The notes under the pieces were generated by a model. That model saw only the letters and a program-made list of their open reading frames with translations, did no database searches and was not told the DNA's origin. 33,060 bases of DNA from Candidatus Magasanikiibacteriota bacterium. Its GTDB lineage: Bacteria > Patescibacteriota > Patescibacteriia > Magasanikbacterales > UBA922. A program made the translations under genes and the position numbers. The DNA lies in assembly GCA_041674805.1 (NCBI GenBank), contig JBAYVA010000002.1:149234-182293 (forward strand). The letters are read 5' to 3'. This document shows, piece after piece, positions 4,361-31,202 of the stretch (position 1 is the first letter of the stretch; each line of letters begins with the position of its first letter).

Positions 4361-6406
<2,046 letters not shown>

Positions 6407-6529: not shown

Positions 6530-6558
6530 TTGACAAAGTAACAACTATAAGCTATAAT
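6530..6558 (+). promoter_or_regulatory. consensus sigma70 promoter for the secE-nusG operon
   Basis: Perfect TTGACA (6530-6535), exactly 17 nt, then perfect TATAAT (6553-6558). Confidence 0.7.
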
Positions 6559-6634
6559 TATCTCATAAATCGGTCAAAAGGCCGTTTTTTAATAAAGAAA
6601 ATAAAAGGTTTAAGTTAAGGACTATAATATAGCT

Positions 6635-6679
6635 TAGTCTTTCGGGCATTTCCAGCCTTTTAAGCCTTTCAAGCATTTC
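6635..6679 (+). repeat. phased 9-nt tandem array (RRGCMTTTY x5) in the secE 5' UTR
   Basis: Reads tagtctttc|gggcatttc|cagcctttt|aagcctttc|aagcatttc, ending 6 nt before the ATG at 6686. Confidence 0.85.
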
Positions 6680-6685
6680 TAGAAT

Positions 6686-6880
6686 ATGAAATTTTTTAAA
6701 TCTATCGGTCAATATATCATAAATTCTATTCACGAATTAAAAAAAGTAACTTGGCCAACAAAAAAACAAGTTTTGACATACACTTTAGTCGTAGTTGTAA
6801 TGAGTTTGGCTGTTGCTGTTTATTTTGGTGTTTTAGATTATGGTTTTAATTGGTTATTTGAACTTATAATTACAAAATAA
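6686..6880 (+). CDS. secE: preprotein translocase subunit SecE
   Basis: 64-aa ORF with the ELKKVTWPTKKQV motif and a single C-terminal TM helix, immediately upstream of nusG (canonical synteny). Confidence 0.85.
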   Translation: MKFFKSIGQYIINSIHELKKVTWPTKKQVLTYTLVVVVMSLAVAVYFGVLDYGFNWLFELIITK

Positions 6881-6883
6881 AAT

Positions 6884-7429
6884 ATGTCCAAACAACAAGA
6901 AAATTTGGGTCGTCGTTGGTATGTCATTCATACTTATAGTGGCTACGAAGAAAATGTTAAACACAATTTGGAGCAACGTGTTGAATCTTTTGAAATGACA
7001 GATAAAATTTTTCAAGTTCTTATTCCAAAAGAAAAGAAAATTAAAATCAAAAATGGTAAACGTACTGTAGTAGAAGAAAAAATTTTTCCAGGTTATGTTT
7101 TAGTAGAAATGATGGTAACAGATGATTCTTGGTATGTAGTACGTAATACACCAAATGTCACAGGTTTCATAGGTACTGGTAATACTCCAACTCCAATTGA
7201 TGCCAAAGAAATGGTGGCTCTTTCTAAGAGAATGACAGTAGATGAACCTACTCACAAAATTGATATTGAAATAAATGCTCCTGTAAAAATTTCAGATGGT
7301 CCTTTCAAGAATTTTGAAGGTAAAGTAAGTGAAGTAGATGAATCAAGAGGAAAAATCAAAGTATTGGTCAATATGTTTGGACGTGAAACACCAGTAGAAT
7401 TGGATGCTTTGCAAGTGAAAAAAATATAA
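6884..7429 (+). CDS. nusG: transcription termination/antitermination factor NusG
   Basis: 181 aa. It has the NGN domain start RWYVIHTYSGYEENV and FPGYVLVEM, plus a C-terminal KOW (VKISDGPFKNFEGKV). Confidence 0.95.
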   Translation: MSKQQENLGRRWYVIHTYSGYEENVKHNLEQRVESFEMTDKIFQVLIPKEKKIKIKNGKRTVVEEKIFPGYVLVEMMVTDDSWYVVRNTPNVTGFIGTGNTPTPIDAKEMVALSKRMTVDEPTHKIDIEINAPVKISDGPFKNFEGKVSEVDESRGKIKVLVNMFGRETPVELDALQVKKI

Positions 7430-7430
7430 C

Positions 7431-7475
7431 AAAAAGGCCTGAAAGGCCTAAAATGCCAGAAAAGCTAAAAAGGCT
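7431..7475 (+). repeat. inverted copy of the 9-mer word array (left arm of the nusG-rplK spacer element)
   Basis: The sequence aaaaaggcctgaaaggcctaaaatgccagaaaagctaaaaaggct is about 75-80 percent complementary (by eye) to 7549-7593. Confidence 0.7.
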
Positions 7476-7548
7476 ATTACTACCTTTTGCTTCTAACTTT
7501 TCTAGTATTTCCAGCCTTTCAGAAAAATAATAACTTTAACAAAAAATT

Positions 7549-7593
7549 AGGCATTTCTGGCTTTTCGAGCCTTTTAAGCCTTTCAAGCTTTTA
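7549..7593 (+). repeat. phased 9-nt tandem array (RRGCMTTTY x5) in the rplK 5' leader
   Basis: Reads aggcatttc|tggcttttc|gagcctttt|aagcctttc|aagctttta, ending 6 nt before the ATG at 7600. Confidence 0.85.
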
Positions 7594-7599
7594 AAATAT

Positions 7600-8022
7600 A
7601 TGGCAAAAAAACTAAAAACACAAATAAAATTACAAGTAGTCGGTGGCGCTGCTAATCCAGCACCTCCAATTGGTCCAGCTCTTGGTCAACATGGTTTGAA
7701 TATTCAAGATTTTTGTACTCAATTCAACAATGCAACAAGTGATAAAAGAGGTGAAGTAGTTCCTGTTGTTATCAATGTTTATGATGACAGAACTTTTGAC
7801 TTTATTACAAAAGTAGCTCCTGCAAGTGAACTTATCAAAAAAGCTGCTGGCATTAGTAAAGGTGCTGGTAATCCTTTGAAAGATAAAGTTGGCAAAATTA
7901 CCAAAGCTCAATTGAAAGAAATTGCTGAAAAGAAAATGGAAGATTTGAATGCTCATGATATTGAGTCTGCTATGAAAATTATTGCTGGTACAGCAAAACA
8001 AATGGGTGTACAAGTTGAATAA
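7600..8022 (+). CDS. rplK: 50S ribosomal protein L11
   Basis: 140 aa with the canonical L11 sequence ([31 protein letters not shown]). Confidence 0.97.
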
Positions 8023-8043
8023 TTTTTACATTTAGAATATTTC

Positions 8044-8079
8044 AAAACAATCCTGATTTAATTGGGATTGTTTTTTTTA
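8044..8079 (+). terminator. intrinsic terminator after rplK
   Basis: Stem aacaatcc (8046-8053) pairs with ggattgtt (8065-8072), followed by a T8 run. Confidence 0.7.
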
Positions 8080-8092
8080 AATTATTTTGGGA

Positions 8093-8120
8093 TTGCTTTT
8101 AATACTAAGTGTGTTAGAAT
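8093..8120 (+). promoter_or_regulatory. promoter candidate for the DUF3048 gene
   Basis: TTGCTT, a 16-nt spacer, then TAGAAT with a TGn extension. Confidence 0.4.
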
Positions 8121-8147
8121 ATATGTTATAAAAGTAATTTTTATTTT

Positions 8148-20860: not shown

Positions 20861-20896
20861 CGCCCTTTTAAGCCTTTTAGGCTTTTCAAGCCTTCT
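20861..20896 (+). repeat. 9-nt word array (3 clear and 1 degenerate copy) in the leader of the CNNM gene
   Basis: Reads cgccctttt|aagcctttt|aggcttttc|aagccttct, then tgct and the ATG at 20901. Confidence 0.75.
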
Positions 20897-20900
20897 TGCT

Positions 20901-30857: not shown

Positions 30858-31202
30858 ATGAAAATTGAGAAATTTGAAGATATAATATCTTGGCAGAAGA
30901 GTAAAATTTTGGTAAAGGATATTTATGAAGTTTTCAAAAATTGTCGAGATTTTGGTTTTAAGGATCAGATACAAAGAGCAGGAATTTCCATTATGAATAA
31001 CATTGCTGAAGGATTTGAAAGGAGAACTAACAAAGAATTAATAAATTTTTTGTACATGGCAAAAGGATCCTGTGCGGAAGTTCGTTCTATGTTGTATGTT
31101 GCCTTGGATTTACAATATATAAATAAAAATAAATTTGATGAATGGTATAAATTGACTGATGACATTTCACGGTTAATTTCAGGTTTTATTAAGACATTAT
31201 AA
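30858..31202 (+). CDS. four-helix-bundle protein (23S rRNA intervening-sequence protein family; Avd-like fold)
   Basis: 114 aa. The segments FKDQIQRAGISIMNNIAEGFERRTNKELINFLYMAKGSCAEVRSML are characteristic of this family. Confidence 0.85.
   Translation: MKIEKFEDIISWQKSKILVKDIYEVFKNCRDFGFKDQIQRAGISIMNNIAEGFERRTNKELINFLYMAKGSCAEVRSMLYVALDLQYINKNKFDEWYKLTDDISRLISGFIKTL

Follow-up and report, generated by a model that had tools for sequence, protein, structure and literature searches.

The nusG-rplK spacer is a composite of repeat arrays and a leader core

The window analyzed here is a stretch of 33,060 nucleotides (C2:149234-182293) from the genome of a Candidatus Magasanikiibacteriota bacterium (G000; 1.06 Mb, 31% GC, four contigs). 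This study concerns the spacer between two of its genes, nusG and rplK, which is built largely from short repeat words. Coordinates are those of the window unless a contig is named, related genomes carry G-numbers, and related loci carry L-numbers (L004 corresponds to G002 and L006 to G004). Gene calls in the analysis scripts were crude, being the longest ATG open reading frames (ORFs), picked greedily.

The three genes of the cluster are secE (6686-6880, plus strand; Pfam SecE), nusG (6884-7429, plus strand; Pfam NusG plus KOW, with a TAA stop at 7427..7429), and rplK, encoding ribosomal protein L11 (7600..8022, plus strand; Pfam Ribosomal_L11_N and Ribosomal_L11). Upstream of secE is a sigma-70-type promoter, TTGACA-17-TATAAT, that matches the consensus at 12/12 positions (6530..6558, plus strand). 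The terminator scan placed an intrinsic-terminator-like hairpin followed by a T-run 3' of rplK (8044..8074, plus strand). Within the nusG-rplK spacer, we found no terminator on the plus strand, in agreement with the original prediction, which had been made from the letters of the window and their ORFs. The spacer also holds no good promoter, its best sigma-70 match reaching 9/12 positions, the level of shuffled sequence. Because a promoter precedes secE, a terminator follows rplK, and neither lies between nusG and rplK, we infer from these signals that rplK is co-transcribed with secE and nusG, in which case the transcript would cross the whole spacer.

The gap between nusG and rplK measures 170 bases and consists, in order, of an antisense array, a leader core, a decayed sense block, an A-rich linker, and a sense array. 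The antisense array, or left arm (7433..7474, minus strand), is a "tail" array that abuts the nusG stop, starting 3 nt past it. Its five units, each with a GCNTTT core, read GCCTTTTTA GCTTTTCTG GCATTTTAG GCCTTTCAG GCCTTTTTG on the minus strand, and the arm is kept in G002, G004, G005, and G013. The middle block (7496..7522, plus strand), detected in the array and repeat scans, has three degenerate sense units, ACTTTTCTA GTATTTCCA GCCTTTCAG, and corresponds to a third, partial sense block in the original prediction. It is followed by the A-rich linker, evident from the sequence (7523..7550, plus strand) and missing in G020, which has a single sense block. The right arm, found in the same scans (7551..7592, plus strand), is a five-unit sense "head" array reading GCATTTCTG GCTTTTCGA GCCTTTTAA GCCTTTCAA GCTTTT. 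The earlier assignment of a reverse-complement form to 7431-7475 and a sense form to 7549-7593 is therefore correct, with five GCNTTT cores in each arm. The 3' arm had also been described as touching the rplK ATG, but the last core stops 7 nt upstream of it and the predicted stem stops at -8.

No ORF is present in the 76 nt between the left and right arms. We rejected the arrays themselves as coding sequence, as their frames are interrupted by stops or not in register with the ATG that follows. They were also rejected as sigma-70 or leaderless-mRNA promoters: by our reading, the spacing of the TTGAAA-like and TAAAAT-like hexamers is wrong, and the 9/12 match is that of shuffles. Units one and two of the left arm (7435-7449), read on the minus strand, give AGGCCTTTCAGGCCT followed by TTTTTG, which resembles a terminator for antisense transcription into nusG.

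The arms belong to a family of five-unit arrays found throughout the genome

We scanned G000 for GCNTTTYNR units at a 9-nt pitch, requiring at least three units, and scored the arrays a second time by chains of the GCNTTT core alone. The first scan identified 54 arrays. Core-chain scoring identified 46: 35 with exactly five cores, 6 with four, 5 with three, and 0 with more than five; the reversed-genome control for these core chains contained 0 arrays. Conservation is 94-100% at core positions against ~50% at variable positions, and unit positions 3, 7, 8, and 9 are nearly unconstrained. Since the cores are conserved while the variable positions are nearly free, the arrays are not recent copies of each other.

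The placement of the arrays relative to genes is strongly patterned. In 24/46 cases, a sense array stops 1-8 nt short of the start codon (ATG) of a long ORF, and antisense arrays lie against the stop of the preceding gene in 6 (strict test) to ~9 cases (looser gene-context table), nusG among these. An inverted partner within 200 nt accompanies 25 arrays (about 60% are in inverted pairs), whereas 16 (about 40%) have no partner, and a search for cryptic partner arms of these 16 found none. Partners are arranged minus-then-plus in 14/14 pairings, and no plus-then-minus pair occurs within an intergenic region in the array list. The genes behind the arrays, read from their N-terminal sequences, include infB, rpsL, rpmE, cysS, aspS, uvrA, uvrB, trmD, and ruvX. 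Elsewhere in the window, a solo five-unit sense array (6637..6681, plus strand) ends 4 nt before the secE ATG at 6686, and a duplex scan of the 200 nt upstream of it gave a z of 0.2. The array scan also found a five-unit array 1 nt before the start of a probable rpmE, encoding L31 (11903-11944, minus strand), and a four-unit array before a CNNM/CorC-type gene (20863-20898, plus strand).

Among relatives, the GCNTTT array pattern was detected in 7/7 genomes of the genus (15-85 hits), with a few hits in 3 other genera of the family. One hit each was found in 2 more distant genomes and 0 in the other 29 relatives; a control pattern had no hits in the same set. The four closest genomes have the most hits (54-85), and G003 and G006 have the fewest (15). 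The array family is largely confined to this genus, and as a repeat-cassette family it is apparently undescribed. Array presence varies within the genus, and between G000 and G004, array units turn over while the flanks are unchanged. Some congeners have GC-rich palindromes of ~30 nt (e.g., GCCCGCCCAAGGCGGGTCCGCCTTGGGCGG and CCGCCCTAGGCGGATCCGCCTAGGGCGG) inside their 9-mer arrays, as in the left arm of G002 and the secE array of G004. A similar palindrome lies before aspS in G000 (C3 ~72740).

Gene-bearing relatives of the spacer carry S23p

S23p, annotated as a "23S rRNA intervening-sequence protein," constitutes a large family with a solved pentameric structure; we know of no function for it. 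G000 encodes 12 proteins of this family (PF05635; 23S_rRNA_IVP, S23p), and each gene lies between inverted arrays of its own word. In these cassettes, the left arm usually follows directly on the stop codon of the preceding gene and the right arm abuts the ATG of the next one. One copy (C2:309108-309491) is flanked by GCNTTT 9-mers, and the 94% similarity between its two arms ranks in the top 0.6% of array pairs. Another, within the window (30858-31202, plus strand), is flanked by GTTATAAC 8-mer arrays. We also found S23p genes in decay. A fragment of the C2:309108-309491 gene at C4:87432-87572, with 66% identity to residues 82-128 and three stops, sits inside an otherwise gene-less array pair (C4 87391-87417, minus strand, and 87566-87610, plus strand), and similar fragments lie between arrays in G002 (C29:5105-5266) and G005 (C19:1979-2143).

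The same association is observed at the orthologous locus. In the congeners G001, G003, and G006, and in two other relatives (L044 and L021), an S23p ORF lies within the nusG-rplK spacer itself, with arrays of other words, and these spacers retain a GCTTCTC core just inside the right arm. ORF-less foldbacks of other words occupy the nusG-rplK spacer in metagenome-assembled genomes labelled as Uhrbacteria, Moranbacteria, and other members of the Candidate Phyla Radiation (CPR), and foldbacks of other words are also found in the secE leader of relatives. The flanking word follows the protein: orthologs of the C2:309108-309491 S23p at 87-100% identity have GCNTTT flanks, while those at 70-74% (G005, G024, and G018) have GCCTTGTAA-type words. 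The location of the ortholog differs between G001/G002 and G000/G004. S23p is similar to Avd, and we considered whether the arrays might be synthesized from a template, with adenines of the template at the variable positions, as in diversity-generating retroelements. This was rejected, as the genome, which is 99% complete, has no reverse transcriptase (PF00078).

Several of these properties would fit arrays that are selfish or neutral repeats and do nothing as RNA, having been left against coding sequences as genome streamlining trimmed the spacers. The spread is lineage specific, presence varies within the genus, units turn over between unchanged flanks, the cassette occupies different loci among congeners, and ORF remnants persist between arms. 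Neutral repeats would not, however, be expected to keep 94-100% of their core positions in exact phase with scrambled variable positions, nor to hold the copy number at five where slippage would give a spread, and a position immediately ahead of essential, highly expressed genes also speaks against neutrality. We regard the neutral reading as unlikely.

A second explanation assigns the arrays to the protein. Structures of S23p homologues contain five chains per entry (2GSC and 2RLD), and XCC0516 is described as a toroidal homopentamer (PMC4990558, citing Lin 2006). Five-unit arrays might accordingly be RNA or single-stranded DNA (ssDNA) binding sites for pentameric S23p, each subunit taking up a single 9-nt unit. 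On this model, rplK would have its translational operator in the right arm, the left arm would be a decoy or a competitor that masks that operator by pairing, and the regulon would comprise ~45 genes. The restriction to five cores and never more, the conservation of cores beside positions that vary freely, and the solo arrays 1-8 nt before start codons are all in keeping with such sites. The same is true of the flanking word particular to each paralog, which changes as the protein diverges, and of the array counts, which are lowest in two genomes without an intact ortholog (G003 and G006). Other genomes do not fit, as G005 has 69 array hits although its closest S23p is 74% identical and has a different flanking word, and G013, G016, and G020 carry a few arrays but no close S23p ortholog. 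In addition, the arms of other S23p cassettes are not five-unit, and an RNA operator does not account for antisense arrays at stop codons. On balance, we consider the operator doubtful, and we hold out similarly little expectation for its general form, in which arrays are wrapping sites for pentameric S23p/Avd-like proteins, one word per subunit, with each paralog reading its own word. If that form were true, S23p cassettes would be portable modules that install protein-readable tags at exact 5' and 3' gene boundaries, here at the nusG stop and the rplK start. It would provide a role for the S23p family and a new kind of post-transcriptional (or ssDNA) control in bacteria without Shine-Dalgarno sequences.

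The arms surround a conserved rplK leader motif

The core of the spacer contains a leader motif (7451..7509, plus strand), which we delimited from the fold of a truncated transcript and from relatives with short spacers. Most genera of the family have a nusG-rplK spacer of only 50-120 nt, in which a hairpin carries an invariant GCTTCT(C/A). In single-sequence folds, a hairpin (P2) sits within an outer stem (P1), with an unpaired GCUUCU directly 3' of P2, and the sequences of the stems differ in almost every genome. We relied on single-sequence folds because MAFFT could not align the divergent stems of 22 leaders and RNAalifold gave no consensus. A strict parser accepts the motif in 18/42 leaders, and most of the others narrowly fail the parser or adopt a simpler form in which GCUUCU lies in a loop. 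Loci with the motif include L007, L010, L018, L026, L027, and L043-L046, among others. An L11-based search for related loci added no genomes of the genus, its matches being largely distant relatives, but it showed that the leader motif and foldbacks of other words recur in this spacer.

In the predicted fold of G000, P1 is formed by left-arm units paired with the middle block, P2 pairs 7468-7473 with 7483-7488, and GCUUCU is single-stranded at 7489-7494. The alignment contains a compensatory change in P1, from A-U to C-G in G004. The P1-P2-GCUUCU architecture is found in G000 only upstream of rplK. We asked whether the GCTTCTC hairpin could be a part of the repeat cassette, and rejected this, as it is unique to rplK in G000 and missing from the flanks of the 12 S23p cassettes. 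Rfam gave no hit at the gathering score in the window, and at E ≤ 1, only chance-level hits in 13 orthologous loci. The motif is complementary to AGAAGC, which we take to occur in the L11-binding region of 23S rRNA. The motif upstream of rplK in many CPR genomes is a candidate cis-regulatory RNA that is as yet unclassified.

The sequence in G020 bears on the order in which the spacer was assembled. It has the left arm, the core, and one sense block only, and this sense array sits at the position of the G000 middle block. Based on this arrangement, the left arm probably paired with the middle block before it had any other partner, and the right arm and A-rich linker were probably added later.

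The arms pair well but are not co-adapted

A repeat search aligned the left arm with the right arm over 51 nt (7424-7474 with 7551-7601; 75% complementary) and with the middle block over 32 nt (7439-7470 with 7491-7522; 78% complementary). These values agree with the 75-80% complementarity originally estimated by eye, and the runs tgaaaggc/gcctttca and gaaaagc/gcttttc are present. The proposed left:middle alternative was also recovered, and it coincides with the outer stem of the leader. The minimum free energy (MFE) of 7425-7610 is -43.6 kcal/mol, compared with -32.8 ± 3.8 kcal/mol for 200 dinucleotide shuffles (z -2.82, and -2.85 in a repeat of the test, with no shuffle equal), and the MFE structure includes a 28-pair left:right helix. 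A transcript ending before the right arm (7427-7548) adopts the leader fold at -28.4 kcal/mol, whereas the full-length transcript prefers left:right pairing. The left:right pairing is ~15 kcal/mol more stable than left:middle. The array-bearing spacers of all six genomes (G000, G002, G004, G005, G013, and G020) fold at z -2.9 to -4.8.

This stability is not particular to the two arms. Read in sense form, they share 74% identity overall and 42% at variable positions, a similarity that 92% of non-partner array pairs in the genome equal or exceed. When the right arm was swapped for each of 25 other five-unit arrays, the mean MFE was -45.8 ± 4.6 kcal/mol and 68% folded equally well or better; for swaps of the left arm, the MFE was -48.4 kcal/mol and 80% folded equally well or better. 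The left arm pairs nearly as well with the secE array (72% over 53 nt, 7424-7476; -35.4 kcal/mol). In the alignment of G000, G002, G004, G005, and G013, the left:right helix is 94% paired, but 19/28 pairs are invariant, only 1/28 shows a compensatory change, and the MFE pairing register differs between close relatives. The exact architecture is common to only these five genomes, and the covariation signal is correspondingly weak. Because swapped arms fold as well, non-partner arrays are as similar, and a single pair has a compensatory change, we conclude that the arms are not co-adapted and that their complementarity is generic to any antisense and sense pair of this word. The spacer outperforms its shuffles, yet folds no better than any opposed array pair, and the idea of one co-adapted ~170-nt element does not hold.

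The two pairings had been read as an attenuator-like choice and a translational gate, which would hide the initiation region of rplK in the left:right state, expose it in the left:middle state, and be subject to a regulated choice between the two. Both pairings exist, and both are kept in G002, G004, G005, and G013. On a growing transcript, left:middle would form first and the more stable left:right later, and a compensatory change is seen once in P1 and once in the left:right helix. The helix stops short of the start codon at -8, however, and the start is not unusually occluded: in the equilibrium ensemble, the mean unpaired probability from -20 to -1 of rplK is 0.55, above the mean of 0.48 ± 0.14 for 150 other genes in the same geometry. 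Shine-Dalgarno motifs occur at 3% of G000 starts compared with 4% in a control window, and hence are not enriched, even though the 16S rRNA tail is GGATCACCTCCTTTCT; T occupies position -1 in 90% of starts. The ordinary accessibility of the rplK start, together with the lack of a Shine-Dalgarno sequence to hide, weakens the gate. Arms that are not co-adapted, a pairing register that shifts among close relatives, the lack of a terminator as the alternative state, and the same type of right arm standing solo before many genes all argue in the same direction. What stands of the gate proposal is the existence of alternative pairings. The left:right duplex is probably not a regulated gate, which we consider quite improbable.

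The array core CCUUUC is identical to the last bases of the 16S rRNA tail, and antisense arrays (GAAAGG) are thus complementary to that tail.

A proposed gene-less cassette around an older leader

Our preferred reading, to which we give a probability of about 0.5, is that the spacer is a gene-less foldback cassette of the kind formed by S23p genes and by the intervening sequences (IVSs) of rRNA, that it surrounds an older rplK leader, and that it probably serves as an RNase III-type stem rather than a purpose-built switch. The core would be the old leader RNA (P1, P2, and single-stranded GCUUCU) common to most of the family. Around it would stand two canonical members of the array family, antisense after the nusG stop and sense before the rplK ATG, which elsewhere are the arms of S23p/IVS-type cassettes; the cassette at rplK would simply be one without its gene. 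On the secE-nusG-rplK transcript, the left arm would pair first with the middle block to give an extended P1. Once the right arm had been made, the left arm could re-pair with it in a 28-bp interrupted duplex, at the base of which the stop codon of nusG would lie only a few nucleotides from the start codon of rplK. If the IVSs of 23S rRNA are a guide, and given that G000 encodes RNase III (C2:291463-291858), this duplex would most likely be a processing or insulating stem that makes the insertion tolerable in the operon. The suggestion in the original prediction of an RNase III site is, broadly, upheld for the build of the element as a gene-less relative of IVS-like cassettes, with cleavage itself proposed by the same analogy.

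The duplex could instead couple translation of the two genes. A ribosome terminating at nusG would melt the base of the stem and re-initiate at rplK despite the 170-nt insertion. The arms begin 3 nt past the stop and end 7 nt before the start, the same abutment is seen at other co-directional gene pairs and at many S23p cassettes, and the genome does without Shine-Dalgarno sequences. Spacers of only 1-11 nt between nusG and rplK in some relatives imply tight coupling. Coupling does not account for divergent head-to-head pairs or for solo arrays, and most relatives have the leader motif in spacers of 50-120 nt with no arrays. We view coupling as very improbable.

Several observations weigh against the cassette reading. 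The arms lie outside the pre-existing leader motif, which a single foldback insertion cannot produce, and the origin must therefore have been stepwise or by a mechanism that our analysis cannot name. The 16 solo arrays retain five intact cores beside start codons, which suggests that the arrays have a constraint of their own, independent of any hairpin. Together with the fixed copy number of five, these features are left unexplained by simple selfish insertion. The 28-bp stem is interrupted every 5-8 bp and is not an obvious optimal substrate for RNase III. Finally, no general target-site duplication is apparent across the 13 array pairs compared. An 8-nt direct repeat, AAAATATA, does flank the element at 7421-7428 and 7593-7600, the first copy overlapping the nusG stop and the second the A of the rplK start codon, but at the other 12 pairs, the flanks share only 0-7 nt with no common length. 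The repeat at rplK may be a matter of chance in AT-rich sequence.

Comparison with known systems

IVSs of 23S rRNA have terminal inverted repeats, tandem heptamers, and a decaying S23p ORF, and are excised by RNase III (PMC4990558). Those bearing S23p (PF05635) are known in Coxiella, Leptospira, Brucella, and Xanthomonas (Warrier et al. 2016, PMC4990558). The rplK element resembles them in its terminal inverted repeats, which would form a long stem around a loop with or without an S23p gene, and in the short tandem repeats of its arms (GACAGAT heptamers in Coxiella). ORF decay, a position within an essential transcript, and a host-encoded RNase III are further likenesses. The element differs in being located in an mRNA spacer between nusG and rplK and not in helix 25 or 45 of 23S rRNA, and each of its arms consists of five phased 9-mers, with complementarity between the two of only 75%. 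It is also without an ORF, and its arms enclose a conserved leader motif. Its excision would be expected by analogy with IVSs.

A second precedent is provided by the TAACTGA repeats of marine Beggiatoaceae, Cyanobacteria, and Bacteroidetes, which are forward oriented and located ~1 nt before start codons that lack a ribosome binding site (RBS), and whose function is not known (MacGregor 2015, PMC4679880). Like them, the GCNTTT arrays are short intergenic tandem repeats, mostly forward, a few nucleotides before RBS-less starts of ribosomal-protein and other housekeeping genes, with a minority toward stop codons. Unlike them, GCNTTTYNR is a degenerate 9-nt word and not an exact heptamer, the arrays are fixed at five units (35/46) as opposed to 2-6 (up to 43) copies, ~60% are in inverted pairs, and there is a physical link to S23p genes. 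We read the element as a variant of both IVS elements and start-proximal tandem repeats.

The original prediction had also offered an insertion resembling a miniature inverted-repeat transposable element (MITE). Its terminal inverted repeats and dispersed foldback family are real, as is the resemblance to MITEs and to repetitive extragenic palindromic (REP) sequences and bacterial interspersed mosaic elements: all are dispersed, gene-less intergenic inverted repeats with gene-bearing relatives in the same genome. The GCNTTT foldbacks, however, share no internal sequence or master element. Their loops are unrelated (here the rplK leader), the arms are not copies of each other or of a master, no target-site duplication of consistent length is apparent, and there is no associated transposase or gene like a REP-associated tyrosine transposase (RAYT).

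Intercistronic hairpins cut by RNase III, such as those of phage T7 early mRNAs and the stems of rRNA operons, are likewise long imperfect duplexes between two cistrons. The rplK duplex differs from them in being built of repeat words that recur with many loops, and its cleavage would be by analogy. Autogenous leaders of ribosomal-protein operons, exemplified by the L1 site of E. coli rplKA, share with our locus a conserved structure (P1-P2-GCUUCU) immediately upstream of rplK. Our motif differs in having no Rfam match, and rplA is not downstream.

IVS elements have so far been described as curiosities of rRNA genes. In G000, the same build, namely inverted arms of phased short words with the S23p gene optional, recurs between ordinary genes, with arms directly against the stops and starts of essential genes, e.g., nusG, rplK, rpsL, and infB. 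The fixed five-unit arm length of one word family matches the S23p pentamer. Two published puzzles, start-codon-proximal tandem repeats and IVS elements, are also linked here. For annotation, good folding alone is no ground to read such spacers as riboswitch-like regulators. The comparison also brings to light the conserved, unclassified leader motif of rplK in CPR bacteria.

Other features near the locus

The ORF list places gyrB at 4361-6406 (plus strand). Downstream of rplK (8023-8147), the terminator is followed by a DUF3048 gene in place of rplA, and the cluster ends. The rplA gene is located elsewhere (C2 ~34850), preceded by a GCCTTGT-type array and a leader of its own. Directly downstream of the secE promoter, at 6565-6595, is a terminator-like hairpin of the form GGCC-N3-5-GGCC followed by T5-6, here CGGTCAAAAGGCCGTTTTTT. 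This hairpin is kept across dozens of CPR genomes in the secE upstream regions surveyed (L001-L087), and it could act as a leader attenuator for secE-nusG.

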